A stretch of DNA of 64,000 bases, taken from NCBI GenBank assembly GCA_017527155.1, contig JAFXQI010000026.1, positions 883 to 64,882 of the forward strand, read 5' to 3'. Below the pieces are notes generated by a model. The model was not told the origin of the DNA, did not search any database, and was given only the letters and a program-made list of their open reading frames with translations. The DNA comes from Kiritimatiellia bacterium (lineage in GTDB: Bacteria > Verrucomicrobiota > Kiritimatiellia > CAIQIC01 > Lenti-01). Positions 6,916 through 58,800 of this stretch are shown one piece after another. Position numbers and translations under genes: made by a program. The stretch's first letter is position 1. Each line of letters starts with the position of its first letter.

Positions 6916-7116
6916 AAAAACACGACGGGGAGCGTGCCGGATGGGTCCTCGTTCCATGCCCTGGTTGCGGAACCACGGCGCGCCGCCGCCGCGTGCCTAG
7001 CGACGGCGCCCTCGCCGTCGTGTGCCGCCAGGATGGCGGAAGGGCGCGCGCCTTCCGGACACGGCCGCGCCTGGTACATCGCAAAGTCAAATCATTCCTA
7101 TTTGTCGGGCTGGTAG

Positions 7117-9068: not shown

Positions 9069-9204
9069 GTTTTCCAACCATTGGAAAAAAGTTCCCGCCG
9101 TTTTCCAATGATTGGAAAAATTTTTGCCGTTTTTTCCAATGATTGGAAAATATTTTTCCAATGGTTGGAAAATTCCGCGGATTTTTTCCAATGGTTGGAA
9201 AATG
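9069..9204 (-). repeat. AT-rich palindrome array A (5 copies, inverted relative to arrays B/C/D)
   Basis: Five TTTTCCAA-N3-TTGGAAAA units centred at 9079, 9110, 9141, 9163 and 9193. The spacing 31-31-22-30 mirrors arrays C and D. Confidence 0.9.
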
Positions 9205-9811: not shown

Positions 9812-9830
9812 GGGGGGATTTCTTTCTTTT

Positions 9831-9872
9831 CGAGTGCAATCGAGTGCAGTCGAGTGCAGTCGATTGCAATCG
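9831..9872. repeat. tandem 10-nt palindromic repeat R10
   Basis: (CGAGTGCAAT)(CGAGTGCAGT)(CGAGTGCAGT)(CGATTGCAAT)CG. Lies 7 nt downstream of the stop of the 851-aa gene (minus strand). Confidence 0.7.
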
Positions 9873-17115: not shown

Positions 17116-17148
17116 ACTTTTCACTTTTCACTCTTCACTTTTCACTCC
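17116..17148. repeat. 7-8-nt micro-tandem repeat
   Basis: CTTTTCAC TTTTCAC TCTTCAC TTTTCAC in the 56-nt gap between two operon genes; no complementary arm nearby. Confidence 0.6.
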
Positions 17149-20235: not shown

Positions 20236-20270
20236 TCGACTGCAATCGAGTGCAATCGACTGCAATCGAT
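20236..20270. repeat. tandem 10-nt palindromic repeat R10
   Basis: TCGAC TGCAA TCGAG TGCAA TCGAC TGCAA TCGAT, between convergent stops at 20192 (+) and 20310 (-). Confidence 0.7.
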
Positions 20271-24748: not shown

Positions 24749-24872
24749 CGCACATTCCCTTCCGGCCCTCGCGGCCCCATTGCCGCCGGCCTTTTCCTCT
24801 CCATCCTGCCCCTCCGCCCCCACCCCTTCAAGCCCAAATCCCCGTCCCCTTCCGCCACCACGTCCGTCCTGC

Positions 24873-24932
24873 TTTTGGAAACAGGAAAAATACTTGACTT
24901 TCCTCCATCCCGCCCCCATGCTCCCCTCCATG
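24873..24932 (+). promoter_or_regulatory. UE family copy whose ATGAA box is the start codon of P-family gene 1
   Basis: TTTTGGAAACAGGAAAAAT...CTTTCC...CCCCTCCATGAACAAC; ATG 24930 begins MNNKVKY. Confidence 0.5.
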
Positions 24933-25898
24933 AACAACAAGGTCAAATACGCCCTCCGCGAGGCCGCCGGGATTGCCGGCGACGTCGCGCGCGCCTACAC
25001 CATCCCCCTGGCCCTCCCCGTGGTCGTGCCGGTCGTCGCCGCCCTCTCCGCGACCGCGCTCGCGGGCTGGCTCGCCGACACCGCCGGCCGCGCCATCCTC
25101 TCCGAGCTGCGCCGCCGGGCCCGCCTCCGGGCACCGCGCCCGCCCTCCCCGTCGCTGCGCGGAACCCCGACGCCGGAGGAGTTCGCCGCCGACGCGGCGG
25201 AACGCCCCCGCACGCTGTCGGTGCGCCTGCGGATCGGCTCGCGCCTGGCGGACCTCGCACCGACCCTCGACCGCGGCAATCTCTACGACATCTCCCCGAC
25301 GGGCGCCAGACGCATCCGCGGCCGCGGCCGCGGCGTCCGCGGCTGGCTGGCCGACAACCGCGTCGCGATGAACTACTCGACCCTCATGCGCTACATGCGC
25401 CTCGCCGTCCGCCTCCGCGCCCTGCTGTCCTTGGACGAACGCATCCCGCTGGAGTGGCTGCTGCCCGGCGCGGCGCCCTCCGCGGAAGTGCCGCCGGCCC
25501 TGCGAATGCACTGCGCATCGGCGAAGCGCCGTCTCGCGCGCCTTATGCGCGCGCATTGGAATTTCAGCCGCCTGCAAGGACACGTGGACGAAGCGCTCGG
25601 CCTGCGGCGCCTGCCGCGTCCCGACCGCCCCAACGGCAAGCCCCTCGACGCCATCCTGGCGGAAAACGTCCGGCGCGAGCTGGCGGATTTCCTGCATGCA
25701 CGCGACCTGTCCCCGGAGCAGGAAGCCTTGCGCCAGGCGGCTCTGGCCGGCTTCCCGGCACCCCGGCCGGGCCCCGGCGCTCGCGACGCCCCGATGGAGA
25801 CTTGTCCGGCGGGGACGGGGTGTGGTATACAGGACGGAAATGCATCGGCGGGAAATGGTATCCGGGCCGGTGCGATGGAAGGAACTCGTTTCGCATGA
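24930..25898 (+). CDS. P-family protein 1: membrane-anchored Arg-rich protein of unknown function
   Basis: One N-terminal TM helix. The ~110-aa core is conserved with 61603-62580 (RLRIGSRLADLAPTLD, YSTLMRYMRLAVRLRAL, ERIPLEWLLP). Stop overlaps the next ATG (ATGA at 25895-25898). Alternative start at 24918. Confidence 0.65.
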   Translation: MNNKVKYALREAAGIAGDVARAYTIPLALPVVVPVVAALSATALAGWLADTAGRAILSELRRRARLRAPRPPSPSLRGTPTPEEFAADAAERPRTLSVRLRIGSRLADLAPTLDRGNLYDISPTGARRIRGRGRGVRGWLADNRVAMNYSTLMRYMRLAVRLRALLSLDERIPLEWLLPGAAPSAEVPPALRMHCASAKRRLARLMRAHWNFSRLQGHVDEALGLRRLPRPDRPNGKPLDAILAENVRRELADFLHARDLSPEQEALRQAALAGFPAPRPGPGARDAPMETCPAGTGCGIQDGNASAGNGIRAGAMEGTRFA

Positions 25899-31999: not shown

Positions 32000-32076
32000 G
32001 GGCCCTTAGCTCAGTCGGTCAGAGCGGGAGACTCATAATCTCTTGGTCGCAGGTTCAAGTCCTGCAGGGCCCACCA
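32000..32076 (+). tRNA. tRNA-Met (CAU), elongator type (could be tRNA-Ile2 if lysidinylated)
   Basis: GGGCCCT acceptor pairs with AGGGCCC. Anticodon loop CTCATAA. GGTTCAAGTCC T-arm. Encoded CCA. Lacks initiator features. Confidence 0.88.
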
Positions 32077-32284
32077 CTTGCTTCCCCGCGGCCCCCGCAC
32101 GGGAATGACGGCATGGGCTCGCAAGGATTTCAGGTCCGCGCAGGTGCGCTTGACAGGGCAAAGGGGGGGGGATAGGCTGTTGGAGAATACCGTCCGGGGT
32201 GTCCGGACGGGTGGCGGTTCCGGCGGTCCGCGGACGTGCGCAGACCGGGGCCGCCGGCAGGCAATCCACGACGGGAGAAGCGAA

Positions 32285-33427
32285 ATGACGATGAAGAAGA
32301 GCGCAATTGCGATGTCCGCCGCGCTGGCCGCGGCGTTGGTGTGGGCCGCGTCCGCGGTGGCACAGGACGGCCCGGCGGCGGCCGACGGGGCGGCCCAGCA
32401 GCCGCAGGGCCCGAAGCCGTCGATGTTCCTGGTGGGGGTGGCGAAGGCGGGGACGGTGGACCACAATCCGGTGCGGACGTTCAGCGGGCGGGTACTCTCG
32501 CCGGAGACGGTGGCGGTGGTCGCGCAGGTGGCGGGGGAGGTCAAGAAGGTGAACTTCGAGGAAGGCGCGCTCCTCAAGAAGGGCGCGGTGATGTACAAGA
32601 TCGACCCCGTCAAGTACGAGGCCGCCGTCGCCTCGGCCAAGGCGCAGGTGGCGCAGGCCGCCGCGAGCGCGGACTACGCGCGCAAGTCGTTCGACCGCGC
32701 CCAGGCGCTGTTCGACAAGAAGGTCGCCTCCCCCGACGACCTCGACGCGGCCACCTCCGCCAAGGCGCAGGCCGAGGCCACCCTCGCGGCGGCGGAAGCG
32801 GCGCTGGTGACGGCGGAGGACAACCTGGCGCACTGCACGATCAAGGCGCCGGTGGACGGCAAGGTGGGGCTGAACGCGGCGGCGGCGGGCAACTACGTCT
32901 CGACGGCGTCGGGCGCGCTGGCGACGATCGTGCGCCAGGACCCGGTGCGGGTGGCGTTCGCGCCGGGCTCGCGCGACTACCTGGCGGTGTTCGGCGGCGA
33001 GAAGGGGCTCAAGGAGCTCTTCGCGGTGGGCGTGCGCCTGGCGGACGGGACGCTGCTGGAAGGCGGCGAGATCGAGTTCGCCGGCAACGAAGTGAACGCC
33101 TCCACGGACACGATGCCCGTCTACGCGCGCTTCGCGAACCCCGACGGCCTGCTCGTCCCCGGCGCGACGGTGAAGGTCGAAGTGCAGGCGCGCGAACCCC
33201 GCCGCTACGTCTCGCTCCCCGTCACGGCGGTGCAGCGCGACGGCGACCAGGCGTTCGTCTGGATGGTGGGCGAGAACAACCTCCCCGTCCGCCGCGACAT
33301 CGAAGCCGGCCCCGCGACGGCCACCTACCAGACCGTCCTCTCCGGCCTCGAAGCCGGCGAAGAAGTGATCGTCCGCGGCACCCACAAGGTCATGCCCGGC
33401 GTCCCCGTCGAGCCCGTGGAGCTGTAA
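32285..33427 (+). CDS. efflux RND periplasmic adaptor (MFP) subunit
   Basis: Signal peptide. Lipoyl/hairpin pattern GAVMYKIDPVKYEAAVASAKAQVAQAAA...NLAHCTIKAPVDGKVG. C-terminal barrel region. Confidence 0.9.
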   Translation: MTMKKSAIAMSAALAAALVWAASAVAQDGPAAADGAAQQPQGPKPSMFLVGVAKAGTVDHNPVRTFSGRVLSPETVAVVAQVAGEVKKVNFEEGALLKKGAVMYKIDPVKYEAAVASAKAQVAQAAASADYARKSFDRAQALFDKKVASPDDLDAATSAKAQAEATLAAAEAALVTAEDNLAHCTIKAPVDGKVGLNAAAAGNYVSTASGALATIVRQDPVRVAFAPGSRDYLAVFGGEKGLKELFAVGVRLADGTLLEGGEIEFAGNEVNASTDTMPVYARFANPDGLLVPGATVKVEVQAREPRRYVSLPVTAVQRDGDQAFVWMVGENNLPVRRDIEAGPATATYQTVLSGLEAGEEVIVRGTHKVMPGVPVEPVEL

Positions 33428-33435
33428 GCCCCCAC

Positions 33436-34656
33436 ATGCCCCGCAAGCCCGCCAAGCCGCACCCCGCGCCCGCCCCCGTCCCTCCCCTGGACGGATTCGA
33501 CGGCTTGGTCGGCCGCATCGCCGCGGCCTCCGACGCCTTGCGGGAAGGGGCGATGGCCGTCGTCAACCGCAGCGTCACCGCCCGCGCATGGCTCACGGGT
33601 TGCTACATCGTCGAATACGAGCAACACGGCCGCGACCGCGCGCAATACGGGGAGCGCCTGCTCGAACGGTTGGCGGAGCGGCTGGAAGACCGCGGACTTT
33701 CCGTCCCAAGCCTGAAAAAATTCAGGCAATTCTACTTGATGTACCCACGCCTTGCCGGCCCGATTTCCGCCTTTCTCGCCGGTCGGTTCGAAAAAGGACA
33801 GTCGGCGATTATCCAATTGCCTCCGGCCCGAACGGGAAAAGGAGAATCGGCGATTATCCCATCCGGCCCCCGTTCGTTGATTGCAGACGCGGACGGCATT
33901 CCGGAAGTGGACCCCGCGGTCCTTTTTTCACGTCTTTCGTTCACCCACGTCTTGCAGCTGCTTCCGCTCCCCGACCCCCTCCAGCGCACCTTCTACGCGT
34001 GGTCGGCCATCCGCGGCACGTGGAGCGTCCGCGAACTGCGCCGCCAGATCGCCAGCCGCTACTTCGAGCGCAGCGGCTGGAGCGGCGATCCCGCCCGGCT
34101 GGCGCGGCTGACCGACGCCCGTGCCGACACCGAAACGGCGCGCGAAAGCCTCCGTTCGCCGCACGTCTTCGAGTTCCTCGGCCTTGCGGCGAAGGACGTG
34201 TGGGAGGAGAGCGACCTCGAGCAGGCGGTGATCGACCACCTGCAGGCCTTCATGCTCGAGATGGGCCTGGGCTTCTGCTTCGAGGCGCGGCAGAAGAAAA
34301 TCCTGATCGACGGCCGCTACCACAAGATCGACCTCGTCTTCTACCACCGCATCCTCAAGTGCCACGTCCTCGTCGAACTCAAGGCCAAGCGGTTCGGCTA
34401 CGAAGACGCGGCGCAGCTGTCCGTCTACATGGCGCACTACCGCAAGCACGAGATGCAGCCGGACGACAACCCTCCGGTGGGCATCCTGCTGTGCACCGAA
34501 GCGGGGGCCGAGATGGCCGAATACGTCAGCACCTTCGTGGACCCGGGCCTGTTCGTGGCGAAGTACGAAGTGCAGCTTCCGCCGAAGGAGCGCATCGCCG
34601 CCTTCCTCAAGCGCGAGAACGCCCGCAACGCCCCGCCGGCGGGAGGTACGCCATGA
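33436..34656 (+). CDS. YhcG-like PDDEXK nuclease (DUF1016)
   Basis: FEFLGL...ESDLEQAVIDHLQAFMLEMGLGFCFEARQKKILIDGRYHKIDLVFYHRILKCHVLVELKAKRF. Only the last 406 codons of an 806-aa track ORF are credible. Confidence 0.88.
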   Translation: MPRKPAKPHPAPAPVPPLDGFDGLVGRIAAASDALREGAMAVVNRSVTARAWLTGCYIVEYEQHGRDRAQYGERLLERLAERLEDRGLSVPSLKKFRQFYLMYPRLAGPISAFLAGRFEKGQSAIIQLPPARTGKGESAIIPSGPRSLIADADGIPEVDPAVLFSRLSFTHVLQLLPLPDPLQRTFYAWSAIRGTWSVRELRRQIASRYFERSGWSGDPARLARLTDARADTETARESLRSPHVFEFLGLAAKDVWEESDLEQAVIDHLQAFMLEMGLGFCFEARQKKILIDGRYHKIDLVFYHRILKCHVLVELKAKRFGYEDAAQLSVYMAHYRKHEMQPDDNPPVGILLCTEAGAEMAEYVSTFVDPGLFVAKYEVQLPPKERIAAFLKRENARNAPPAGGTP

Positions 34657-34695
34657 CGGCGCGCCTCCGGCGGCCCGCCCGTGGCCTGCGGGGAG

Positions 34696-34820
34696 TTTTC
34701 CAACGATTGGAAAAAAACTTTCCAATCATTGGAAAAACCGGCGCGAATTTTCCAACCATTGGAAAAATATTTTCCAATCATTGGAAAACCGCCGAAAAAT
34801 TTTTCCAATCGTTGGAAAAC
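34696..34820 (+). repeat. AT-rich palindrome array B (5 copies)
   Basis: Units centred at 34705, 34727, 34757, 34779 and 34810 (spacing 22-30-22-31). Long identical runs shared with array C. Confidence 0.9.
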
Positions 34821-34859
34821 TCGCTTTGATCAATAACCCAGCAACAAAAGGACAACGCC

Positions 34860-35567
34860 ATGTCTGACAACCTCTCCACCGACCGCCCGCACAAATCTCC
34901 GCCATGGAAACGCATGCTCGGGATTGCCATTGGATGGCTTCTGGCCATGGGCGTCATGTTGTTGCTGCTGGACGGATGGTGGCGCGATGCACCATCGTTC
35001 GCCGTCATGTGGGGAACGATGGCCTTGTTGATGGCAGTTCCTTTCGCGGTGTCGGCGGCGTTGGTGTGGGGCGGGACGCGGTTGCGGCGCGGCGGCCGTC
35101 GCTGGGGAACGGCGCTCGTGGCCGTCGGGGTGGCCGGATTCATCGCGGCCGGTTCGATTCTGATTACCTTCGGGGGAAGTGCCGGGCCGTGGTGGGAGCG
35201 AATCGTGAAGCACGGGACGTTGCCGAACGGACGCGAATACGTCCTGTCCCAAGCCTGGGTAGACTGGTATGACGGCTACGACATCCGCATCTTCTTCCGC
35301 GAAGCGGACGGGAAATGGGTGTCCCTGTGCGGCGGCCACTGGTGGAAACCGTTCAGGCGCGTTACCGAAATCCAGCTGCATGAACCGGAGGGGGAGGTGG
35401 CCATCCGCACGACGCGCGGCGGCGAGTGGTTGCTGCGGGGGCATCGGACCGTCCACCCGGCGGAGATGACGCCGGAAGAACTCCATGCTTTCCACCGGGC
35501 GGAAATGGAAAATCTCCGCGCTGGGAAAACTCGCTCTGGAGAAGCGCCGCAAGGGGACGCACCATGA
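34860..35567 (+). CDS. A-family membrane protein 1 (4 TM plus soluble C-domain, unknown function)
   Basis: Paralogue of 38696-39382 (GTLPNGREYVLSQAWVDWYDGYDIRIFFREADGKW; HPAEMTPEELHAFHRAEM). Bracketed by arrays B and C. Confidence 0.65.
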   Translation: MSDNLSTDRPHKSPPWKRMLGIAIGWLLAMGVMLLLLDGWWRDAPSFAVMWGTMALLMAVPFAVSAALVWGGTRLRRGGRRWGTALVAVGVAGFIAAGSILITFGGSAGPWWERIVKHGTLPNGREYVLSQAWVDWYDGYDIRIFFREADGKWVSLCGGHWWKPFRRVTEIQLHEPEGEVAIRTTRGGEWLLRGHRTVHPAEMTPEELHAFHRAEMENLRAGKTRSGEAPQGDAP

Positions 35568-35650
35568 CCGCCCTCCTCCAACACCCCTTGCCCATCCCTT
35601 GCGCGGCGGCGCGGCAGGATGCCGCACCTCCCAGGGGGGGGCGGGGTTTC

Positions 35651-35717
35651 GGCCACAAAGAACACAAAGAGCACAAAGGGGGTTGGGAACTTTGTGCCCT
35701 TTGTGTTCTTTGTGGCC
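35651..35717. repeat. 28-bp-stem hairpin built from 9-nt units
   Basis: GGCCACAAAGAACACAAAGAGCACAAAG, 11-nt loop, CTTTGTGCCCTTTGTGTTCTTTGTGGCC (one mismatch). Confidence 0.8.
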
Positions 35718-35751
35718 AAAAAGGGATGGAGGGCGCGTCCAGGGGCGGAAA

Positions 35752-35910
35752 AATTTTCCAACCATTGGAAAAAAAGTTTCCAATCATTGGAAAAACCGGC
35801 GCGAATTTTCCAACCATTGGAAAAATATTTTCCAATCATTGGAAAAAACCGGAAAATTTTTTCCAATCATTGGAAAACCGGCGAAAAATTTTTCCAATCG
35901 TTGGAAAACT
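35752..35910 (+). repeat. AT-rich palindrome array C (6 copies)
   Basis: Units centred at 35763, 35785, 35815, 35837, 35868 and 35899 (spacing 22-30-22-31-31). Confidence 0.9.
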
Positions 35911-36286
35911 CGCCGCCCTCCTGCTCCTGCTGGCGGCGCCGTCGGCGCGCGCGGAAGACACGGTCTGGATGCCCGACCCCGCCGCCGTGGTCCGCTATAT
36001 GCGGACGGGCCCCTGGGACCGCACGGAGCGCGAAGTGCCGAAGGCCGAAGGAGACGGCATCATCGAGCTGCTGCGCGACGCCGAGCCGTTCCCGCGCCGC
36101 TATGTCCTCGAATCGAACCGGCATGACGGCGGGACGCTTTCCGGCGTCGCCCGCCTGTTTTACGGCGACGGCAATCTCTGGCGCATCATTTGGGAGGCTA
36201 ACAAAGACGCCGTTCCCGACCCGGACCGCCCCAAACCCGGCACCTCCCTCGTGATTCCCGCCCTGGCGGAAGGGGCCGCGCCGTGA
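35888..36286 (+). CDS. secreted LysM-domain protein (start codon unresolved)
   Basis: Signal-like KLAALLLLLAAPSARA and C-terminal LysM (TLSGVARLFYGDGNLWRIIWEANKDAVPDPDRPKPGTSLVIP). No ATG/GTG/TTG lies before the signal peptide. In-frame ATT 35888 and ATC 35897 lie inside array C; the nearest in-frame ATG is at 35726. Confidence 0.55.
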   Translation: MFPIVGKLAALLLLLAAPSARAEDTVWMPDPAAVVRYMRTGPWDRTEREVPKAEGDGIIELLRDAEPFPRRYVLESNRHDGGTLSGVARLFYGDGNLWRIIWEANKDAVPDPDRPKPGTSLVIPALAEGAAP

Positions 36287-36401
36287 CGGCAGGGCGGCAA
36301 AGGCGGCGTTTTCCCGTCCGATTGCAACCGAAGGCATTCGACGGCACGTGGTTTTCCCCGGCGTTCCCCTCTGGAATCCCATCCGCCCGGACTTCCAACC
36401 C

Positions 36402-36959
36402 ATGAAAAAACTCTTCCACATCCTCTTCGACACCGCTTGGGGGCCCGCCGCCGCCTGGGTTGTCGCCGGGGCCCTGGCAGGGGTTGCCTCCAATGCTTGC
36501 GCCGTTCATCCGGGCGACCCACGATCCACCATGCTCCTTGTCCTCGTCTGCCTGCCGCTTCTTTTGGCCGCCCTTGTCGCCTTGGGCGCGTTTGTCCGCT
36601 CGCTTCTGCGCCGGCGCTTTCTCCATGCCCTGCTCCAGATTCTCTTGATCGTTGCCGCCCAGGCGGCAACCGGCGTGGCCGTTGTCCCGTTGCTCGCTCC
36701 GGTCAACCGTTCGACTCCCATCCACACCCCGGACGCTCCACCCTCTCCTGACTCCTCCCTCCCCCCTTCCGCCCCTCCCGTCTCCCAGACATCCGAGTCC
36801 GCGCAGCGGCATTCGAGGCATTCTTGTAGATTCCGACCTCCCGCTTTCTTTCCGCAATTTGTCCGCCCGCAGGGCGCACCGCATCTTGTCACTTGTCACT
36901 TGTCACTGTGCCGGAGCCGCCCCCTTCCCGGGGTTGACGGAACAGGTCAAATGAACTAG
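36402..36959 (+). CDS. hypothetical membrane protein
   Basis: MKKLFHILF, then 3-4 hydrophobic helices and a Pro/Ser-rich tail that runs through a (CTTGTCA)x3 repeat at 36885-36906. The 3' end is uncertain. Confidence 0.4.
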   Translation: MKKLFHILFDTAWGPAAAWVVAGALAGVASNACAVHPGDPRSTMLLVLVCLPLLLAALVALGAFVRSLLRRRFLHALLQILLIVAAQAATGVAVVPLLAPVNRSTPIHTPDAPPSPDSSLPPSAPPVSQTSESAQRHSRHSCRFRPPAFFPQFVRPQGAPHLVTCHLSLCRSRPLPGVDGTGQMN

Positions 36960-36986
36960 TCTTCATGGCAGAAAGGAACGCCCCCC

Positions 36987-37265
36987 ATGACGGAACCCGC
37001 ACCTGCAATCGGATTGTTCGAAGCCAAGACGCATTTTTCGCGCATCGTCGACGACGTGGTCAACGGGCGCAGCGGCGCCGTGCCGGTGATGCGCCGCGGG
37101 AAACCGGCCGTGTACATCGTGGCGGACGCCTTCTACCGCCAGGCCACCGCCGGGGCCTCCCCGGGCATCCGCTACGGGCTGGCCAAGGGCAAATACCGGT
37201 TGGCGCGCGGCATCGACGCCGGCAACGCCGAAGTCCTCCGGCTCTTCCGCGGCGGTGAAGCGTGA
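36987..37265 (+). CDS. type II antitoxin, Phd/YefM-like
   Basis: 92 aa. GLFEAKTHFSRIVDDVVNG...PVMRRGKPAVYIV. Stop overlaps the toxin GTG start (GTGA). Confidence 0.75.
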   Translation: MTEPAPAIGLFEAKTHFSRIVDDVVNGRSGAVPVMRRGKPAVYIVADAFYRQATAGASPGIRYGLAKGKYRLARGIDAGNAEVLRLFRGGEA

Positions 37266-37648
37266 AGTACCTGCTGGACACGCACCTGCTGCTCTGGGCC
37301 ATCGTGGACGACCCCGCCTTCCCTCCGCGCGCCCGCAAGCTCCTGGCGGAAAGCGGCGCCGAGGCCTACTTCAGCGCCGCGTCCGTCTGGGAGGTGGCCA
37401 TCAAGAACGGCCTGCCCCACCGCTCGCTGGGGATACCGGCGGACGCCTTCCGGCGCGAATGCCTGGCGGCGGGCTTCCGCGAACTGCCCGTTGCGTCGCG
37501 CCACGCGGCGGCGGTCGAGTCGCTCCCGCACCGCCACGAGGACCCCTTCGACCGCATCCTCCTCGCCCAGGCCATCGAAGAAGACTGCACCTTCCTGACC
37601 CACGACACCCTCCTCCCCTCCTACGGCCCTCCCGTCCGCCGCGTGTGA
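37262..37648 (+). CDS. vapC: PIN-domain toxin
   Basis: MKYLLDTHLLLW, SVWEVAIK, HEDPFDRILLAQA, LTHD. The conserved acidic PIN residues are in the expected order. Confidence 0.85.
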   Translation: MKYLLDTHLLLWAIVDDPAFPPRARKLLAESGAEAYFSAASVWEVAIKNGLPHRSLGIPADAFRRECLAAGFRELPVASRHAAAVESLPHRHEDPFDRILLAQAIEEDCTFLTHDTLLPSYGPPVRRV

Positions 37649-37675
37649 CCCGTCCGCCCGGAAAACCGCAACACC

Positions 37676-38287
37676 TCAGTACCGCCCTCCATATTCCTTC
37701 CGCGCTTCGGCCGTCCATTTGGCGACGAAACCGCCCTTTGCATCCGTGTAGGCATCCCGGTCGTGCTCATGCCGCTTCCACAGGCGGAGCTTCAGCGATT
37801 CATATTCCTTCGCGGCGTCGGGGTGCTCGTTCAGGTAATCGCGGAAGTACAGCTCGCCGTTGTCCCCGGCATGCCGCAGGTGGATATGGTACACCTTGTC
37901 CGTAAACCCGTTTGGGGTATATCCCTTGTTGAGCGAGATCCTGGCCGCCCCGGCGGACATGACGGCAAAGCCGTTCCGTTCCAATATCCGGGCCAGGTCC
38001 TCCAATCCGCCGCTTTCGGGCACTTCGACCAGCACATCGACAATGTTCTTTGCCCATATCCCTTTGATCGCCGTGCTCCCGATGTGGCTGATCCTGCGGA
38101 TGGGACGTCCTGCGAACAGCTTCTTCAGCAGCATTTCCATCTCCCTGTAGTCCTCCGCCCACTTGCCATCAGGCTCGACAAGGACGATCGGAAACAGCTC
38201 CCACAATTCTTCCAACGACATCTCCGACAATTCTTTTCCCATGGCTGCCAACTCCCCAAGCGCCGATTTGCCGTCGGCCCTTTGCAT
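37676..38287 (-). CDS. GrpB family protein (UPF0157 nucleotidyltransferase fold)
   Basis: ISHIGSTAIKGIWAKNIVDVLVEV...YHIHLRHAGDNGELYFRDYLNEHPDAAKEYESLK. Visibly lower GC than neighbours. Alternative start at 38242. Confidence 0.85.
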   Translation of the reverse strand: MQRADGKSALGELAAMGKELSEMSLEELWELFPIVLVEPDGKWAEDYREMEMLLKKLFAGRPIRRISHIGSTAIKGIWAKNIVDVLVEVPESGGLEDLARILERNGFAVMSAGAARISLNKGYTPNGFTDKVYHIHLRHAGDNGELYFRDYLNEHPDAAKEYESLKLRLWKRHEHDRDAYTDAKGGFVAKWTAEARKEYGGRY

Positions 38288-38460
38288 GCAAATTCCGTAG
38301 AGCCACCAGTGCTCTTCACCGCCTTCCGCTTATATCCCCGCCCCCCTTGCCCCGCAAGAAAAAGAAGGTGCCCCGAATGCCCTTTCCTTTGGGCGGATTG
38401 GAACGGGATTTTCCAAGCTCACCCCATCCACGTCCCGCCCGCGCAGCGGGCGCACCGCAC

Positions 38461-38540
38461 TGAAAGGGTGAAAGGTTGAGGGAGTACGTTGAAGGGCCAT
38501 TCTTCGACTTTTCAACCTTTCGACTTTTCAACCTTTCACC
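38461..38540. repeat. hairpin with 8-nt micro-tandem arms, copy 1
   Basis: TGAAAGGGTGAAAGGTTGAGGG...GTTGAAGGG, loop, TCTTCGAC TTTTCAAC CTTTCGAC TTTTCAAC CTTTCACC. Confidence 0.75.
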
Positions 38541-38695
38541 CGTCGGGGCGGCCGCCGCGACGCGCGTTTCCCGTTGTCTCGCGCCGCGCCTTCTGCTAGA
38601 CGTTCCCTTGCAACCACACCTCTACGAACCAGAAGGGAACAAGGAGTGAGAACCATGGAGATGAAAAGCGGAAAAATGAAGCGGAAGGTGACGCC

Positions 38696-39382
38696 ATGAC
38701 GGCGGGACGGAAGTGGCTCTTGGGGGGATTGCTCGCGGTCGGCGCGGCGGCGGCGTTTTGCGGGCTTGCGTACTGGTTCTGGCGCGACGCGGTGTCGGTA
38801 CTCGCCCTGGTTTGGGTGCTTTGGATCCTGCTCGGCATCCCCGTCGCCTTGTGCGGATGCCTCTACTGGGCCGGACGCCGGCGCATCGGCTCCGGACGCC
38901 GCGGCGGACGGGCGATGGTCGGCGCGGCCCTGGCGGGCGGCGTGCTGGCCACCGCATTTTTCGGCTATTACCTCTGGATTGCCGGGCCGTGGTACAACGG
39001 CATCGTCCTGCGCGGGACGGCTCCGGACGGCGGCGAATACATCCTCTCCCAGGCGTGGACCGACTGGTTCGACGGCTACGACATCCGCCTCTTCCACCGC
39101 CAGCCGGACGGACAATGGCTCTCGCGCTGGGGCGGCTACAATTGGGAGTCGTATTACCGCGGCTACGAAATCGAGTGGAGCGGCCGCGCCCCCGTGATCC
39201 GGCTGGCCGACGGCAGCGAGCGCGGCTTCAACCACCGTCCCGACCGCCAAACCACCCATCCCGCTTTCCTTTCGCCCGACGACCTCCACGCCCTCCACCT
39301 CGCCGAAATGCGCACCGACCGCTCCATCCCCGGCATCTGGCACATCCTGAACAATGCGGATTCGGAAAGAGGCGCGCAATGA
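38696..39382 (+). CDS. A-family membrane protein 2
   Basis: 4 TM helices. GTAPDGGEYILSQAWTDWFDGYDIRLFHRQPDGQW; HPAFLSPDDLHALHLAEM. Paralogue of 34860-35567. Confidence 0.65.
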   Translation: MTAGRKWLLGGLLAVGAAAAFCGLAYWFWRDAVSVLALVWVLWILLGIPVALCGCLYWAGRRRIGSGRRGGRAMVGAALAGGVLATAFFGYYLWIAGPWYNGIVLRGTAPDGGEYILSQAWTDWFDGYDIRLFHRQPDGQWLSRWGGYNWESYYRGYEIEWSGRAPVIRLADGSERGFNHRPDRQTTHPAFLSPDDLHALHLAEMRTDRSIPGIWHILNNADSERGAQ

Positions 39383-39837
39383 AAAAGGAACGGCCCCGAA
39401 TGCGGATCAGATAAGCTCCGCCCGCCCATGGAACAAGCCCGCCCGCTCCCCGTTCTCCCCTGCCTGTGGCGCAAAACACGGAGCGTGCGGAGAAAGGAGA
39501 CACGGAGCTTTTCCAGGGAGGAGCTTCGCACTTCCAAAAACGTCCTCTCAGGAATAAGGGGCCAGGCCCGAACTTCCGCACTCCAGCCGTTCCTTTGTTT
39601 TCTTTTGTCCTTTTGTGCAAAAGCGCTCTCCAAGCCCTCCGCGTCTCCGCGTGGGTTTTCCTTCCCGAATCCCTCCCGCTCCCTTGTCGGACTTGGCGGA
39701 CTTTGAGTGGGACATTCTTCCGCCCTCCATCCGCCATGGCGCGGCAAGATGCCGCACCCCCGGAAGTGGCGCGGAAGCTTCCGGGCATGCATCGCGGGGA
39801 TTTCGGCGGGGCGGCTTCCAGGTAGGGCGCTGGATGT

Positions 39838-39878
39838 GAGATTACGGAAAACATTGGGCTTTTCGCTTGTTTTCCGCT
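39838..39878 (+). promoter_or_regulatory. UE family copy (5' half) upstream of RND gene
   Basis: GAGATTACGGAAAAC-N7-TTTTCG...TTTTCC. No ATGAA box; it is followed by the large 8-nt-unit hairpin. Confidence 0.4.
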
Positions 39879-39930
39879 TTCCAGGCGCCCCGCGGGCCTC
39901 CCGCCCGCGCCCCGACTGCACATCCGCGAA

Positions 39931-40070
39931 GGGTTGAAAGGTTGAAGGGGTGAAAGGTTGAAGGGTTGAAGGGTTGAGGGAATGGGCCGTCCTTCATCTT
40001 TTCAACCTTTCCACCTTTCAACCTTTCAACTTTTCAACCTTTCAACCTTTCAACCTTTCAACCTTTCACC
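39931..40070. repeat. large asymmetric hairpin with 8-nt micro-tandem arms, copy 2
   Basis: Left arm has ~6 units of GTTGAAGG/GTTGAAAG (39931-39980). Right arm has 10 units of CTTTCAAC (39991-40070). Ends 110 nt upstream of the RND start. Confidence 0.85.
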
Positions 40071-40179
40071 GGGCTTCGTGCTTTGCACATTCGCCCTTGC
40101 GGGGGGAGGGGGAAAATGGGTAGGATGGGGGGTCTCCGCGCAATGCGGGGGTAGTGTCTCCAAGGAAAGGATGTCATCC

Positions 40180-43100
40180 ATGTTCAGCAAAATCTTCATC
40201 GACCGGCCGAGGCTCGCGTTCGTGTGTTCGATCGTGCTCATGCTCGCGGGGGCCATCTGCGTGACGAAGCTGCCCGTGGAGGAGTACCCCGACATCGCGC
40301 CGCCCCAGATCTACGTGATGTGCAACTACCCCGGCGCCACTTCCCAGACGGTCCTCGACACGGTCGGCACCGCCATCGAGTCGCAGATCAACGGCGTCGA
40401 CGGCCTGCTCTACTACTCCGCCAACGCCGAGGACAACGGCAATTTCTTCGCCCAGGTCGATTTCCAGCCCGGCACCGACACCGACATCGCGATGGTCAAC
40501 GTCCAGAACGCCGTCAAGCGCGCCGAGCCCTCCCTCCCCGAGGAGGTCACCCGCCAGGGCGTCAACGTCAACAAGCGCTCCAGCGACATCCTCTGCGTGT
40601 ACGCGTTCATGACCGACGGCTCGCACATGAGCTCGATGGAGCTGAACAACTACGTCTCGAAGAACATCGCCGACGCGCTCTCCCGCGTCGACGGCGTCGG
40701 CTCCGTCACCGCCATGGGCGACACCTACGCGATGCGCATCTGGCTCGACCCCGTCCGCATGGACGGCCTCGGGGTCACCGTCGCCGAGGTCAACGCCGCG
40801 GTCTCCTCGCAGAACCTGCAGGCGACGGCCGGCAGCGTCGGCGGCGAGCGCGCGAACCCCTACGTGCAGTACCGCATCAGCACGATGGGCCGCCTGCAGA
40901 CGCCGGAGCAGTTCGAGGACATCGTGGTCCGCACGGGCGCGGACGGCAGCGTGCTGCGCATCCGGGACATCGGCCGCGCGGAGCTGGGGGCGCAGATGAC
41001 GTCGTTCATCGGCGAGTACAACGGCCGCAACGCGGTGGCGCTGATGGCCTACCGCGACACCGGCGCCAACGCCGTCGGCACCATCGCCCGCGTCAAGGCG
41101 GAGCTGGAAAGCTGGCGGGAGCGCCTGCCGGAGGGCGTCGATTTCCAGATCACCTACGACCCGTCGGAGTCGGTGGTGGTCTCGCTCAAGGAGACGGCCT
41201 TCACGCTGGTGCTGACGCTGCTGCTGGTGATCCTCATCACATACCTCTTCCTCCAGGACTGGCGCGCGACGATCGTGCCGGCGGTGGCGATCCCCGTCTC
41301 GCTGCTGGGCGCGTTCCCGTTCGTGTACGCGCTGGGGTTCTCGCTGAACACGCTGACGCTCTTCGGCCTGGTGCTGGTGATCGGGTCGCTGGTGGACGAC
41401 GCGATCGTCGTCGTCGAGAACTGCCAGTCCCTCATGCAGCGCGAAAAGCTCTCCGCCCGCGCCGCCGCCATCAAGTGCATGGAGCAGATCACCGGCGCCA
41501 TCATCGCGACGACCCTCGTCACCGTCGCCTGCTACGTCCCGCTCGCGTTCTACGGCGGCATGGTCGGTACCATCTACGTGCAGTTCGCCGTGACGATGTG
41601 CGTGTCGCTCTGCATCTCGACCTTCGTGGCCATGACCCTCTCGCCGGCCCTCTGCTCCCTCGTGCTGCGGCCGCCGCGCGAGAAGCCCGCGAAGATCTTC
41701 GCCCCCTTCAACCTCCTCGTGGACGGCTCGCGCAAGTTCAGCAACCTGTTCGTCGGGTTCCTCGTGCGGCGGAGCGTGTTCGCGGTCGCGATCCTGGCGC
41801 TCTTCGTCGCGGGCATCTGGGGCGTGTCCAAGCTCGTCCCCGGCTCCTTCCTGCCCGAAGAAGACAAGGGCATCGTCTTCTGCGACATCGGCCTGCCCGA
41901 AGGCGCCTCCCTCGAGCGCACCATGGACTCCGTCCGCGCCTTCCGCGACAAGACCGCCATGGTCCCCGAAGTCGACCGCACCATGGCCATCGCCGGCTTC
42001 GGCATGATCAACGGCGCCGGCGAATCCTCCGGCATGCTCATGGCCGGCCTCAAGCACTGGGACGACCGCGCCGGCAAGGGCCAGGACGCCGCCTCCCTCA
42101 AGAACAAACTCATGGGCCTGGGCATGACCCCCATCGGCTCCGACCCCGACTCCCTGGCGGCGCAGACCGACGCGCGCGTCATCTGCTTCACCCCGCCCGC
42201 CATCCAGGGGCTGGGCATGACCGGCGGCCTCTCCCTCTACCTCGCGAGCGACGGCTCCCTCAGCTCCTCCGAACTCGCCGCGGCCGCCGACAAACTCGCC
42301 GTCGACATCCAGCAGCTCACCGATTCCAAGGGCCGCAAGCTCGCCGCCTCCGCCAACAACTCCTTCGTCGCCAACACCCCCAAACTCTACCTCGACGTCG
42401 ACCGCGAAAAAGCCATCTCCCTCGGCATCAACATCTCCCAGCTCTTCTTCACCCTCCAGTCCCAGCTCGCCAGCTACTACATCAACGACTTCAACATGAT
42501 GGGCGAAGCCTTCTACGTCAAGATGCAGTCCGAGCAATCCTCCCGCACCAGCGAAGAATCCGTCCTCGCCCTCCAGATCCCCACCTCCTCCGGCGGCAGC
42601 GTCCCCCTCTCCACCATCGCCACCCTGCGGCACGAAAAGAGCTCCCGCGTCCTCCAGCGCTACAACAAGATGAACGCCGCCAAACTCACCGCCCAGTGCG
42701 CCCCCGGCGTCCCCACCAAGACCCTCATGGACGCCATCGAAACCATCCCCCTCCCCAAAGGCTGCTCCATCGAATGGACCGACATGTCCTTCCAGGAAAA
42801 ACAGAACCAGGGCCAGATCGTCTCCCTCATGGCCCTCGCCCTTTTGTTCGCCTTCCTCTTCCTCGTCGCCCAGTACGAGAGCTGGTCCATCCCCGTCCCC
42901 GTCATGCTCACCGTCGCCACCGCCACCTTCGGCGCCATGCTCGGCATCTGGGCGTGCAGCGGCAGCTGGGGCCTCGCCCACGGATTCGGCAGCGCCGGGT
43001 CCCTCTCCATCTACGCCCAGCTCGGCCTCGTCATGCTCATCGGCCTCTCCGCCAAGAACGCCATCCTCATGGTCGAATTCTCCAAACAGGAACGCGAAGC

Positions 43101-44763
43101 CGGCCAGCCCATCCCCGAAGCCGCCCGCAACGGCTTCAACATGCGCTACCGCGCCGTCCTCATGACCGCCTGGAGCTTCATCTTCGGCGTCATTCCCCTC
43201 GTCTTCGCCTCCGGCGCCGGTTGCAACAGCCGAATCGCCATCGGCGTCACCACCTGCACCGGGATGCTCATGGCCACCTTCGTCGGCATCCTCCTGACCC
43301 CCGGCCTGTACGCCTTCTTCCAGACCCTCCGCGAAGGCGTCAAACACCTCATCCACATGAAAACCTCCGTCGAGATCGCCGCCGAACACCGCGCCGAAGA
43401 AGCCGCCCGCGCCAAAGCCCGCGCCGCCGCCAAGACCCTCGCCCTCCTGCTGATTGCCGGCATCACCGCCATCCTCGCCACCGGCTGCGGAACCATCCGC
43501 ATGGCCCGCGACGCCCAGGCCACCGACACCGAACGCACCCTCCGCTGGACCGAGACCCCCTTCGCCGAACAAACCCCCATCCCCGTCGAAGCCCTCGCCC
43601 AGTGGGCCCGCACCAACGTCCCCGCCGTCGTCCAGGCCCGCGAAGACGTCGTGCAGGCCCAGATCGCCCTCCGCTCCATCAAAGCCTCTTATATCCCTGT
43701 CATCGACGGAAGCATCGCTTATACCTATGCTTCCGCCAACATCGACCCCCACGACACCTCTTGGGACGGCGACGGCATCTGGGACGGCAAACTCACCCTC
43801 AACTGGCTCCTCTTCGACTTCGGCCGCACCCCGGCCGCCACCCGGCAAGCCGTCGCCCGCCTCGCCGCCGCCGACCAGGCCGCGCGCGCCGCCGAACAGA
43901 CCGCCGCCTACAACGTCCGCGCCGCCTGCTTCGAACTCCTGCGCAAGACCGAACTCCACGCCGTCGCCCAGGCCAACGCCGCCGCCTACAAAGACCACCT
44001 CGAACAGACCCAGCACCGCTACGACGTCGGCGCCGTCACCAGCTACGAAGTCTCCAAGGCCCGCGTCGATTCCGAGAACGCCCGCCTCGCCGAAATCGTC
44101 GCCGCACACGGCGTCCAGACCGCCCGCGCCGGCCTCGCCCTCGCCCTCGGCCTCGCCGAAAACCCCGACATCGACCTCCAGCCCCTCGAAACCGCCCCCG
44201 ACACCCGCACCCTCGACGACCTCTGGGCCATCGCCCAGACCAACGCCCCATCCCTCGCCGCCCTGCGCGCCGCCGCCGACGCCGCCAAAAACTACGTCGA
44301 CTGGACCATCTGCGACCTCTACCCCAAACTCTCCCTCACCCTCACCTTCGACGCCCAAGGCGACAGCACCCCGCTTTTGTGGAACTACGCCGCCGTCCCC
44401 GCCGCCGCCCAGACCCTCTTCGCCGGCCGCGCCAAGACCCGCCAGATCGAGACCGCCGTCTCCCAACTCCGCGCCGCCCGCAGCAAACTCGCCGCCGCCG
44501 AACAGACTCTCTACAACACCCTCCTGAACGCCACCCTTTCCGCCCAAAGCGCCCAGGACGCCCTCGACGTCGCCCAAAGCGCCGCCGCCGCCGCCCAGGA
44601 AAACTTCGACATCGTCTCCAGCCGCTACGATGTCGGCAAAGCCTCCGTCCTCGAACGCACCGACGCCCAAGTCGCCCTCTCCCGCGCCCAAGCCGAAGTC
44701 GTCACCGCCCGCTACAACCTCCTCGACACCCGCATCCTCATCACCCGCCTCATCGGCGAGTGA
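40180..44763 (+). CDS. RND (AcrB-type) transporter continuous in frame with TolC/OprM-type outer-membrane factor
   Basis: AAGGAAAGG RBS then ATG 40180. MFSKIFIDRPRLAFV... 12-TM RND. No stop occurs before the OMF segment (lipobox-like LATGC plus TolC-type repeats), so the ORF is 1527 codons. The track start 39982 lies inside the 8-nt repeats. Confidence 0.85.
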   Translation: MFSKIFIDRPRLAFVCSIVLMLAGAICVTKLPVEEYPDIAPPQIYVMCNYPGATSQTVLDTVGTAIESQINGVDGLLYYSANAEDNGNFFAQVDFQPGTDTDIAMVNVQNAVKRAEPSLPEEVTRQGVNVNKRSSDILCVYAFMTDGSHMSSMELNNYVSKNIADALSRVDGVGSVTAMGDTYAMRIWLDPVRMDGLGVTVAEVNAAVSSQNLQATAGSVGGERANPYVQYRISTMGRLQTPEQFEDIVVRTGADGSVLRIRDIGRAELGAQMTSFIGEYNGRNAVALMAYRDTGANAVGTIARVKAELESWRERLPEGVDFQITYDPSESVVVSLKETAFTLVLTLLLVILITYLFLQDWRATIVPAVAIPVSLLGAFPFVYALGFSLNTLTLFGLVLVIGSLVDDAIVVVENCQSLMQREKLSARAAAIKCMEQITGAIIATTLVTVACYVPLAFYGGMVGTIYVQFAVTMCVSLCISTFVAMTLSPALCSLVLRPPREKPAKIFAPFNLLVDGSRKFSNLFVGFLVRRSVFAVAILALFVAGIWGVSKLVPGSFLPEEDKGIVFCDIGLPEGASLERTMDSVRAFRDKTAMVPEVDRTMAIAGFGMINGAGESSGMLMAGLKHWDDRAGKGQDAASLKNKLMGLGMTPIGSDPDSLAAQTDARVICFTPPAIQGLGMTGGLSLYLASDGSLSSSELAAAADKLAVDIQQLTDSKGRKLAASANNSFVANTPKLYLDVDREKAISLGINISQLFFTLQSQLASYYINDFNMMGEAFYVKMQSEQSSRTSEESVLALQIPTSSGGSVPLSTIATLRHEKSSRVLQRYNKMNAAKLTAQCAPGVPTKTLMDAIETIPLPKGCSIEWTDMSFQEKQNQGQIVSLMALALLFAFLFLVAQYESWSIPVPVMLTVATATFGAMLGIWACSGSWGLAHGFGSAGSLSIYAQLGLVMLIGLSAKNAILMVEFSKQEREAGQPIPEAARNGFNMRYRAVLMTAWSFIFGVIPLVFASGAGCNSRIAIGVTTCTGMLMATFVGILLTPGLYAFFQTLREGVKHLIHMKTSVEIAAEHRAEEAARAKARAAAKTLALLLIAGITAILATGCGTIRMARDAQATDTERTLRWTETPFAEQTPIPVEALAQWARTNVPAVVQAREDVVQAQIALRSIKASYIPVIDGSIAYTYASANIDPHDTSWDGDGIWDGKLTLNWLLFDFGRTPAATRQAVARLAAADQAARAAEQTAAYNVRAACFELLRKTELHAVAQANAAAYKDHLEQTQHRYDVGAVTSYEVSKARVDSENARLAEIVAAHGVQTARAGLALALGLAENPDIDLQPLETAPDTRTLDDLWAIAQTNAPSLAALRAAADAAKNYVDWTICDLYPKLSLTLTFDAQGDSTPLLWNYAAVPAAAQTLFAGRAKTRQIETAVSQLRAARSKLAAAEQTLYNTLLNATLSAQSAQDALDVAQSAAAAAQENFDIVSSRYDVGKASVLERTDAQVALSRAQAEVVTARYNLLDTRILITRLIGE
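43357..44763 (+). CDS. alternative reading: OMF lipoprotein initiated at internal in-frame ATG
   Basis: MKTSVEIAAEHRAEEAARAKARAAAKTLALLLIAGITAILATGC then a TolC family body. No SD-like sequence within 15 nt upstream of ATG 43357. Confidence 0.4.
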   Translation: MKTSVEIAAEHRAEEAARAKARAAAKTLALLLIAGITAILATGCGTIRMARDAQATDTERTLRWTETPFAEQTPIPVEALAQWARTNVPAVVQAREDVVQAQIALRSIKASYIPVIDGSIAYTYASANIDPHDTSWDGDGIWDGKLTLNWLLFDFGRTPAATRQAVARLAAADQAARAAEQTAAYNVRAACFELLRKTELHAVAQANAAAYKDHLEQTQHRYDVGAVTSYEVSKARVDSENARLAEIVAAHGVQTARAGLALALGLAENPDIDLQPLETAPDTRTLDDLWAIAQTNAPSLAALRAAADAAKNYVDWTICDLYPKLSLTLTFDAQGDSTPLLWNYAAVPAAAQTLFAGRAKTRQIETAVSQLRAARSKLAAAEQTLYNTLLNATLSAQSAQDALDVAQSAAAAAQENFDIVSSRYDVGKASVLERTDAQVALSRAQAEVVTARYNLLDTRILITRLIGE

Positions 44764-45386: not shown

Positions 45387-45387
45387 C

Positions 45388-45466
45388 GGGACATCCGGGA
45401 CCACCGGGACCACCGGGACTGGAGCGCCCTCGTCCCGGTTGTCCCGTCCGTCCCGGTGGTCCCGTC
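45388..45466. repeat. hairpin with 9-nt micro-tandem arms
   Basis: GGGACATCC GGGACCACC GGGACCACC GGGAC, loop, GTCCCGGTT GTCCCGTCC GTCCCGGTG GTCCCGTC. Starts 2 nt after the preceding stop. Confidence 0.8.
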
Positions 45467-49186: not shown

Positions 49187-49233
49187 TTTTCCCAGTCCCA
49201 TCCCCCCCCTTTTTTCCCCGGCTCCAACAAATA

Positions 49234-49292
49234 TTTGGAAACAGGAAAAATCCGCCATTTTCCCGCCATTTCACACCATCTCCATCGCCATG
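49234..49292 (+). promoter_or_regulatory. UE family copy, orphan, followed directly by an R10 repeat
   Basis: TTTGGAAACAGGAAAAAT...ATTTTCC...CATCGCCATGAAAAA. No credible ORF follows; the R10 repeat starts 27 nt later. Confidence 0.45.
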
Positions 49293-49318
49293 AAAAATGC
49301 CACCCATCCCCCCCCCGG

Positions 49319-49361
49319 TCGATTGCAGTCGAGAGCAGTCGAGAGCAATCGAATGCAGTCG
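49319..49361. repeat. tandem 10-nt palindromic repeat R10
   Basis: TC(GATTGCAGTC)(GAGAGCAGTC)(GAGAGCAATC)(GAATGCAGTC)G, between convergent stops at 49186 (+) and 49383 (-). Confidence 0.7.
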
Positions 49362-52399: not shown

Positions 52400-52556
52400 G
52401 TTTTCCAACCATTGGAAACTTTTTTTCCAATCATTGGAAAAAACGGGCCCGATTTTCCAACCATTGGAAAAATATTTTCCAATCGTTGGAAAAAACGGGA
52501 AAATTTTTTCCAATGGTTGGAAAACGGCCGGGAATTTTTTCCAATCATTGGAAAAC
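52400..52556 (+). repeat. AT-rich palindrome array D (6 copies)
   Basis: Units centred at 52410, 52432, 52462, 52484, 52515 and 52546 (spacing 22-30-22-31-31, identical to array C). Confidence 0.9.
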
Positions 52557-58781: not shown

Positions 58782-58800
58782 TTTTCCAATCATTGGAAAA
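58782..58800. repeat. solo copy of the 19-bp AT-rich palindrome
   Basis: TTTTCCAATCATTGGAAAA, located between the UE copy and the GT4 start. Confidence 0.85.

Follow-up and report, generated by a model that had tools for sequence, protein, structure and literature searches.

Organization of the split efflux operon

The DNA analyzed here is a 64-kb window (the whole stretch under study) with a GC content of 68% from an uncultured rumen bacterium of the Kiritimatiellae. It harbors the genes for a tripartite efflux pump of the resistance-nodulation-division (RND) type, which are separated by an interval of 6,752 bp (33428–40179) that includes one reverse-strand gene. The nearest public genomes are rumen metagenome-assembled genomes (MAGs) labelled Kiritimatiellae, in which the periplasmic adaptor, or membrane fusion protein (MFP), is 97–98% identical. 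In the window, the MFP gene forms the left conserved flank of the interval (32285–33427, + strand, 380 aa) and its product is recognized as the RND_mfp adaptor of a tripartite RND (HAE1) efflux system by TIGR01730 (236.6 bits, cut-off 94.9). The right conserved flank is a gene of 1527 codons with an ATG start (40180–44763, + strand). A first-pass annotation, made from the sequence alone, had placed the end of the adaptor gene at 33427 and the start of a pump gene at 40180, and these coordinates hold in profile searches and independent gene calls. The latter give the identical MFP start and stop on public contigs, and the coordinates of the interval genes agree with gene calls on public contigs encoding identical proteins. 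Since the arrangement of the window was recovered in at least five independent metagenome assemblies, it is no assembly artifact. The downstream gene had been taken for a plain RND gene. It indeed encodes an RND permease (PF00873 ACR_tran, E 7e-274 over 1020 of the 1021 profile positions; TIGR00915, 994.9 bits, cut-off 940), but the C-terminal part of the product corresponds to a full-length TolC-like outer-membrane factor (OMF; PF02321 OEP twice, E 1e-44), which is fused in frame to the permease. The more specific profile TIGR01844 matches at aa 1142–1522 with a score of 114, under its cut-off of 225.

Most of the gene inventory that the first-pass annotation had listed for the interval was recovered, with corrections in some places. 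The first slot behind the adaptor is occupied by a gene for a YhcG/DUF1016 PD-(D/E)XK nuclease (33436–34656, + strand; Pfam YhcG_C E 2e-43, DUF1016_N E 3e-23). Its start codon follows the MFP stop codon after a spacer of 8 nt, the distance being 9 nt when counted from the final base of the stop. This candidate defense gene belongs to the PADLOC family PDC-S02 (E 2e-109), which is itself a candidate family unvalidated as an anti-phage system, and the other seven interval proteins gave no PADLOC match. Then follows p235 (34860–35567, + strand), which lies as a cassette between two palindrome arrays (34696–34819 and 35754–35908). Further downstream, its paralogue p228 is encoded at 38696–39382 (+ strand). 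Both had been described as paralogous proteins with four transmembrane (TM) segments. Their paralogy stands (37–43% identity), but an AlphaFold model with three long N-terminal helices and a β-rich domain suggests that they probably have three TM segments rather than four. The family is narrow, with only 61 clusters among 1.84 billion representatives in a profile search, and p228 and p235 have no match in Pfam, NCBIfam, PADLOC or PHROGs. No relatives of p228 were found in IMG/VR viral contigs. Its AF2 model (pLDDT 76) gave no PDB match at E ≤ 0.001 and none better than E 0.1; the weak matches are lipocalin-like in appearance.

Between the two paralogues, a LysM protein had been proposed (35870–36286, + strand). 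It is weakly supported by NCBIfam NF008399 (E 2.6e-8, under the cut-off) and by a LysM-like C-terminal motif, while Pfam gave no match. The N-terminus resembles a signal peptide, and the protein is presumably secreted. Its start is uncertain: gene callers place it at 35726, and in the stretch 35726–35930 the called start falls within the palindrome array. Most plausibly, translation starts at TTG 35870 inside a palindrome unit, and the repeat would therefore encode part of the signal-peptide N-region. The small membrane protein p203 (36402–36959, + strand) has a Pro/Ser-rich tail and is without family match. It is followed by a Phd-VapC type II toxin-antitoxin pair on the same strand (Phd 36987–37265, VapC 37262–37648), in which the small antitoxin gene overlaps the toxin gene by 4 nt, as is characteristic of VapBC systems. 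The PIN domain of VapC is well supported (E 7e-16, 59.3 bits, cut-off 23.6); the Phd/YefM-like antitoxin scores below the Pfam cut-off (E 6e-5, 23.2 bits, cut-off 29.8). The sole gene on the opposite strand encodes a GrpB-family protein (37676–38242, − strand, Pfam E 1.7e-41) and has, as noted in the first reading, a lower GC content, in fact the lowest of all (58%). The interval closes with a gene-free stretch (39383–40179) that carries several repeat families as claimed and measures 797 bp instead of 770 bp; its final 15–25 nt are conserved with relatives. A relic of a 23S_rRNA_IVP gene, which relatives have beside the RND gene, was sought in the window and not found.

The composition of the interval is atypical. 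Its genes have a GC content at third codon positions (GC3) of 0.69–0.92, compared with 0.93–0.96 in the flanking genes and in the host genes of the window generally, and its tetranucleotide L1 distance of 0.26–0.315 exceeds the value outside (0.208 ± 0.038), though large surface-protein genes at 11–17 kb are equally atypical. The pump genes on either side are under purifying selection, with dN/dS values versus relatives of 0.24–0.27 for MFP and 0.32–0.44 for RND. This selection makes it probable that the pump remains in use, most likely functional despite the split of its operon. For comparison, dN/dS amounts to 0.12–0.22 for Phd-VapC and 0.55 for p228.

The junction in related genomes

Related contigs, referred to as L014, L018 and so on, show what the locus looked like before it was split. 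In the outgroup Kiritimatiellae L031 and L032, whose RND-OMF proteins share 57% and 47% identity with that of the window, the genes are contiguous in the order MarR-MFP-RND/OMF, with gaps of 151 and 46 nt between adaptor and permease genes. The same adjacency is found in L021–L023 and in distant homologues from Microvirga, a cyanobacterium and a proteobacterium, in line with the assumption of the first-pass annotation that the two genes normally lie side by side. In contrast, the MFP–RND junction is filled in every sampled relative with 74–100% MFP identity, and the cargo differs each time. No empty junction was found within this close clade; the empty state was seen in the outgroups L031 and L032. 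Hence, the split is real, derived, older than the species and ancestral to the clade. The objection that relatives might share both gene order and composition, which would make the arrangement simply ancestral, thus applies by half: it is true of the split and untrue of the content.

DNA homology to the window stops at 33417–33427 in all relatives, at the MFP stop codon or no more than about 10 nt from it, and is found again from 40155–40180 onward, 0–25 nt before the RND start. Between these fixed breakpoints, about 12 distinct fillings were found that range from 0.4 kb to more than 10 kb, so that the same flanks enclose different content. The slot of YhcG is a case in point. In L014–L017 it is taken by p225, a 225-aa membrane protein and paralogue of p228, and this variant was encountered in four further contigs from separate samples; L014 additionally carries an ORF6N gene and a phage-like end. 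The 225-aa gene also fills the slot in L020, together with a single palindrome array and without p235. In L018, a truncated YhcG gene is fused onto an array, and L019 combines a LysM gene with a YhcG of merely 26% identity. A 23S_rRNA_IVP gene (hereafter IVP) stands in the first position of L033 (IVP-LysM-p203-Phd-VapC-p228, then two AAA_14/DUF4143 genes and AbiEi) and of L035 (IVP-array-p228-p203-GrpB). More distinct are L024 (p225-LysM-KilA-N-p247), L027 (a gene for 292 aa, HipBA, IVP), L039 (IVP-Phd-VapC, directly 5′ of the RND gene) and L025, where one IVP gene alone was found. The Phd-VapC pairs of L039, located directly between IVP and RND, and of L033, located after p203, share 87–95% protein identity with that of the window. 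The most persistent resident of the junction is the LysM-like gene, present in L014, L018, L019, L020, L024 and L033 and differing among variants by a domain copy of 282 bp.

Across the variants, the cargo mainly comprises toxin-antitoxin genes (VapBC, HipBA, AbiEi), genes for DNA-binding domains of phage type (KilA-N, ORF6N), IVP genes encoding four-helix-bundle proteins, and AAA_14/DUF4143 ATPases. As far as predicted families allow, it is of the kind known from accessory and defense islands, both in the window and in the relatives, and the synteny comparison thereby bears out the original idea of an operon split by accessory DNA. Long blocks of 97–99% identity lie on both sides of each difference between variants, and the breakpoints are mostly located at gene ends and not within repeats.

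The left side of the MFP gene (32077–32400) is also a breakpoint. In the window it borders on alr and a tRNA-Met gene with anticodon CAT (32000–32076, + strand, ARAGORN), and in L018 and L020 on unrelated host genes. The first-pass annotation had reported no flanking tRNA, which proved incorrect: the tRNA-Met gene ends 209 nt upstream of MFP and 1.35 kb from the island edge at 33428. It stands where relatives have MarR, which is encoded 5′ of MFP in L024, L025, L027, L031, L032 and L033.

Repeat families

Both palindrome arrays of the interval consist of units of TTTTCCAAYNRTTGGAAAA. Array 1 has five units spaced by 22 or 30–31 nt, and array 2, with six units, repeats array 1 in direct orientation (125 nt, 94% identical). 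The unit is an AT-rich perfect palindrome with 8–9-bp inverted repeats that recur at about two or three helical turns in a genome of 68% GC. With 23 units in the window, compared with none predicted by chance, the palindromes form four arrays and one singleton. The occurrences outside the island are located at 9070–9202, 52401–52555 and 58782–58800, the two arrays among them between convergent host genes. The units have the appearance of serial binding sites for a protein or of a family resembling the repetitive extragenic palindromes (REP) and bacterial interspersed mosaic elements (BIME) of other bacteria. The family is genome-wide and, among relatives, confined to the close clade.

The first-pass annotation had proposed that the repeats themselves may mediate insertion. 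For the p235 cassette this is supported: the indel lies exactly between arrays 1 and 2, and L020 and L018 possess a single hybrid array and lack p235. The arrays thus explain this one cassette indel. As island-specific insertion mediators they were rejected, with 12 of the 23 units lying outside the island; the repeat families in general are mostly genome-wide. The arrays are also missing from L025 and L027, although the junctions are filled there, and therefore cannot account for the hotspot as a whole.

A second element of approximately 80 nt (core GCGGCARGATGCCGC; ATGACCGCCCTCC...GCGCGGCARGATGCCGCAC...) folds into a hairpin with a 6–8-bp stem and a 3-nt loop, without obvious resemblance to attC. 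Copy 1 is found at 35565–35644 (+ strand, core GCGGCAGGATGCCGCAC at 35611–35627) and copy 2 in the gene-free stretch (core 39741–39757). These are the only copies in the 64 kb, with 0.07 expected.

Other repeats are associated with gene starts. Many host and island genes have three to nine tandem copies of a 7–10-nt unit nearby, in the cases checked mostly 20–180 nt 5′ of the start codon (3528–3552, 5437–5480, 9830–9872, 17116–17146, 20236–20269, 36885–36907, 38503–38538, 40000–40068 and 49325–49361). The unit varies from gene to gene and among orthologous RND genes (TTTCAACC, TCGACTGCCA, TGCATTAT, TGCATTGT, TTCTAGTC). In every relative, including L024, L025, L027 and L039, the RND gene is preceded by such a block, each time with a different unit. 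Some tandem units pair with an inverted copy to give very long hairpins. A very stable one consists of octamers and spans 148 nt at 39925–40072, downstream of the last island gene and ahead of the RND start; it has a folding energy of −85.3 kcal/mol (z −10.4). Two shorter ones are located at 35647–35721 (75 nt of tandem CACAAAGA units and their complement, −46.9 kcal/mol, z −7.0) and upstream of p228 at 38461–38540 (GGTTGAAA/TTTCAACC-type octamers, −35.3 kcal/mol, z −4.0). A comparable hairpin of tandem 9-mers (CGGGACCAC and complement) was observed at 45387–45466, within the 785 nt that separate the RND-OMF gene from a response-regulator/SpoIIE gene. With E-value thresholds, Rfam returned nothing but spurious miRNA-type matches, on the long hairpins. 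In addition, there is a promoter-like repeat, approximately 68 nt in length (CTTTTGGAAAyAsGAAAAA...TTGA...CCATGAAAAAC), of which three copies, at 6855–6922, 24872–24939 and 49232–49299, each terminate with a start codon. It is probably the "UE" repeat of the first-pass annotation, and it recurs as a partial copy (approximately 39838–39890) at a distance of 340 nt ahead of the RND gene.

The short tandem-repeat blocks upstream of many modules and of the RND gene suggest that these are probably separate transcription units. In particular, the RND-OMF gene would probably be transcribed from its own promoter within 39383–40179 rather than by read-through from MFP, because it is preceded by a tandem-repeat block and the 148-nt hairpin, and because GrpB is oriented in the opposite direction. 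A scan of 31.9–45.6 kb for σ70 promoters gave no sites, the σ70 consensus being uninformative for this phylum, and terminator-like sites in the same region were no more frequent than in shuffled sequences.

A probable recombination hotspot within the pump operon

Taken together, the interval 33428–40179 probably represents the local state of a long-lived, integrase-free recombination hotspot at the junction of an ancestral MarR-MFP-RND/OMF operon in this clade of rumen Kiritimatiellae. The junction appears to be an old hotspot with continuing turnover and not the site of one recent insertion, because the homology breakpoints are fixed while each close relative holds different cargo. Small modules make up its filling like a mosaic, and they vary from strain to strain and from species to species. 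These modules are probably gained, lost, swapped and reordered through homologous recombination, with the conserved MFP 3′ end and RND 5′ end serving as anchors between which non-homologous "alleles" would be exchanged. The 125-nt palindrome arrays and the ~80-nt hairpin element may provide internal crossover sites, and a dedicated site-specific recombinase would not be required. Such a process is suggested by the fixed outer breakpoints, the modular differences at 97–99% flank identity and the array-bounded indel, as well as by the discordant divergence of the two flanks versus L025 (dS of 0.84 for MFP and 0.30 for RND) and the lack of a recombinase gene. Neither integrase nor transposase nor Y1/HUH-type genes were found among the window open reading frames scanned with Pfam, as the first-pass annotation had already stated for integrases and transposases, or in the gene calls and Pfam annotations of the related junction intervals. 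The sole transposase seen is of the IS110 family and is encoded upstream of MarR in the outgroup L031.

Several points weigh against this hotspot. Recombination is deduced from patterns, and neither an intermediate nor a donor was seen. The data consist of metagenome contigs and MAGs, in which some variants may be paralogous loci or chimeric joins, and the window, L018 and L020 present three different left contexts even though their MFP genes are 97–98% identical. The retention of the LysM-like gene in most variants might mean that it is more than mere cargo. Against a separate transcription of the RND gene, no σ70 consensus promoter was detected before it. Finally, the confinement of the hairpin element to the interval, together with a phage-like junction on it in L014, hints at a more specific mechanism.

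This last point leads to the alternative that site-specific insertion took place, either through a recombinase or a phage-encoded function that acts in trans at the ~80-nt hairpin (core GCGGCARGATGCCGC) or as part of an island linked to tRNA-Met. We consider this unlikely, even though no other feature points to a more specific mechanism as well as the hairpin element does. Besides the chance expectation given above, its distribution in the relatives speaks for such a role, as all copies lie within the junction interval and close to the boundaries of cassettes (seven copies aligned). Moreover, the DNA of L014 becomes AT-rich right after the hairpin (window 39756) and from there on encodes a phage portal protein (phrog_332, E 5.5e-100). 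However, a single contig shows this join, which might have arisen by chimeric assembly at the repeat, no IMG/VR viral contig matches the element, and L024, L025, L027 and L039 lack it although their junctions are filled. The tRNA-Met gene, for its part, is close to MFP in the position of MarR, but no further copy of its sequence, not even a partial one, was found in the window, and there is therefore no visible pair of attachment sites; a search for repeats of a tRNA-Leu sequence likewise gave none. In the sequences scanned, neither a tyrosine or serine integrase at one end nor a direct repeat of the tRNA 3′ end, the hallmarks of tRNA islands, delimits the interval, nor do they contain an IntI integrase of the kind that accompanies attI in integrons.

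A related and rather speculative idea, with little probability in our view, is that the MFP–RND junction functions as a dedicated cassette-exchange platform, on the hairpin elements of which a recombinase or phage function acts in trans to insert and shuffle modules of single genes, similar to an integron without adjacent integrase. If so, the operon junction could be favored as a site where newly acquired cargo stays expressed, owing to read-through from a pump operon under strong selection.

At least as doubtful as site-specific insertion is the view that the interval is not foreign at all. In this case, LysM, p225/p228/p235 and p203 would be efflux accessories that evolved in place, with only YhcG, VapBC and GrpB hitch-hiking. 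The LysM gene occurs in the junction of seven variant types, down to 77% MFP identity, and a p225/p228-type protein follows MFP in L014, L020 and L024. All these genes share the orientation of the pump genes and are predicted to encode envelope proteins, either with a signal peptide and LysM or with three TM segments and a probably periplasmic β-rich domain. Yet, the outgroups as well as L025, L027 and L039 do without any of them and have intact pump genes. Order and copy number also vary, with p228 before p203 in L035 and one to three paralogues per locus, the GC3 of 0.69–0.85 is under that of host genes, the dN/dS of p228 exceeds that of the pump genes, and no known pump accessory was found to be related in structure or family.

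Least probable is that the variability is an artifact, either of different paralogous MFP...RND loci or of metagenome contigs joined chimerically where repeats recur across the genome. Assemblers could be misled by the genome-wide palindrome arrays and tandem repeats, near-identical MFP genes occur in three left-hand contexts, and the L018 and L033 contigs do not extend to the RND gene, but the repeated recovery of the window arrangement and of the p225 variant from independent assemblies and samples, the long near-identical blocks around each difference and the location of most breakpoints at gene ends rather than in repeats all oppose it.

If the hotspot is accepted, the junction inside a tripartite efflux operon can, in this uncultured phylum-level lineage of the rumen, be a long-lived landing site for toxin-antitoxin and candidate defense genes without destruction of the pump. 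This is relevant whenever operons, co-regulation or pump partners are inferred from gene adjacency in metagenomes. The approximately 12 variants between two fixed breakpoints also provide a compact natural test bed for hotspot turnover without integrase.

The RND-OMF fusion

The fusion of permease and outer-membrane factor deserves a separate comment. Its linker (approximately aa 1085–1103, nt 43430–43490) contains a lipoprotein signal peptide with lipobox (KTLALLLIAGITAILATG followed by C; ...LLLIAGITAILATG followed by C) that is kept in 10 of 11 fused homologues (47–98% identity) and lines up with the signal peptide at the N-terminus of the OMF that L027 encodes in a separate gene. This suggests that RND-OMF could be a polyprotein that is cut by signal peptidase II and lipidated after membrane insertion. 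No description of natural RND-OMF fusions or of an internal lipobox was found in the searchable literature, and an RND-TolC polyprotein with an internal lipoprotein signal peptide may interest efflux specialists more than the hotspot does.

In L027 (13312–18174), and also in L028, the RND gene (83% identity) is unfused, and the RND–OMF junction holds a gene for 192 aa, two HipBA-like pairs and an FGE-sulfatase gene. Because the outgroups have the fused gene, this state looks like a fission of the fused gene plus insertion.

Comparison with known systems

In enterobacteria, REP and BIME are clusters of short palindromes that are distributed over the intergenic regions of the whole genome and are possible substrates of recombination. 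The TTTTCCAAYNRTTGGAAAA arrays are alike in this respect. They differ in that their units are AT-rich perfect inverted repeats of 8–9 bp at helical-turn spacing in a GC-rich genome, and no transposase of the RAYT type was seen.

With tRNA-linked islands, the interval shares accessory cargo of lower GC content near a tRNA gene. In contrast to them, the tRNA-Met gene is 1.35 kb away from the edge with MFP in between, and the integrase and the direct repeat of the tRNA end are missing. The resemblance to integrons consists in mostly co-oriented small genes that can be gained, lost or reordered singly, with hairpin repeats between them and a fixed gene upstream. However, no IntI was found at the MFP–RND junction, the palindrome arrays are genome-wide, and many cassettes have upstream tandem repeats and maybe promoters of their own.

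A search of the literature on toxin-antitoxin or defense genes inside efflux operons and on DUF1016 in defense islands found nothing directly relevant. There is, in contrast, precedent for variable hotspots between conserved flanks without identifiable mobile element (PMC10250203, PMC10121019). Their three defining traits, flanks that are fixed, content that varies and an empty state in relatives, were all observed for the MFP–RND junction. Hotspot #37 of Escherichia coli is similarly occupied nearly always where it is present, with very diverse cargo and mostly without a detectable mobile element, yet many of its instances carry an integrase or recombinase (PMC10121019), while none was found in the approximately 12 MFP–RND variants. 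The hotspots cDHS1 and cDHS2 of Pseudomonas aeruginosa lie between unrelated core genes beside non-coding RNA genes and span 1–224 kb, and %GC was taken as a signature of acquired genes (PMC10250203). They share with the MFP–RND junction the fixed conserved flanks, the highly variable and often defense-related content and the absence of an obvious single group of mobile elements (PMC10250203). Unlike them, the MFP–RND site sits inside a two-gene operon whose pump is most likely functional, measures between 0.4 kb and more than 10 kb and mostly holds toxin-antitoxin and candidate defense genes instead of validated systems. The hotspot is thus another case of a known kind and not a new mechanism; what is unusual about it is that it interrupts a pump operon and that, as L027 shows, the RND–OMF junction of this operon can be filled as well.

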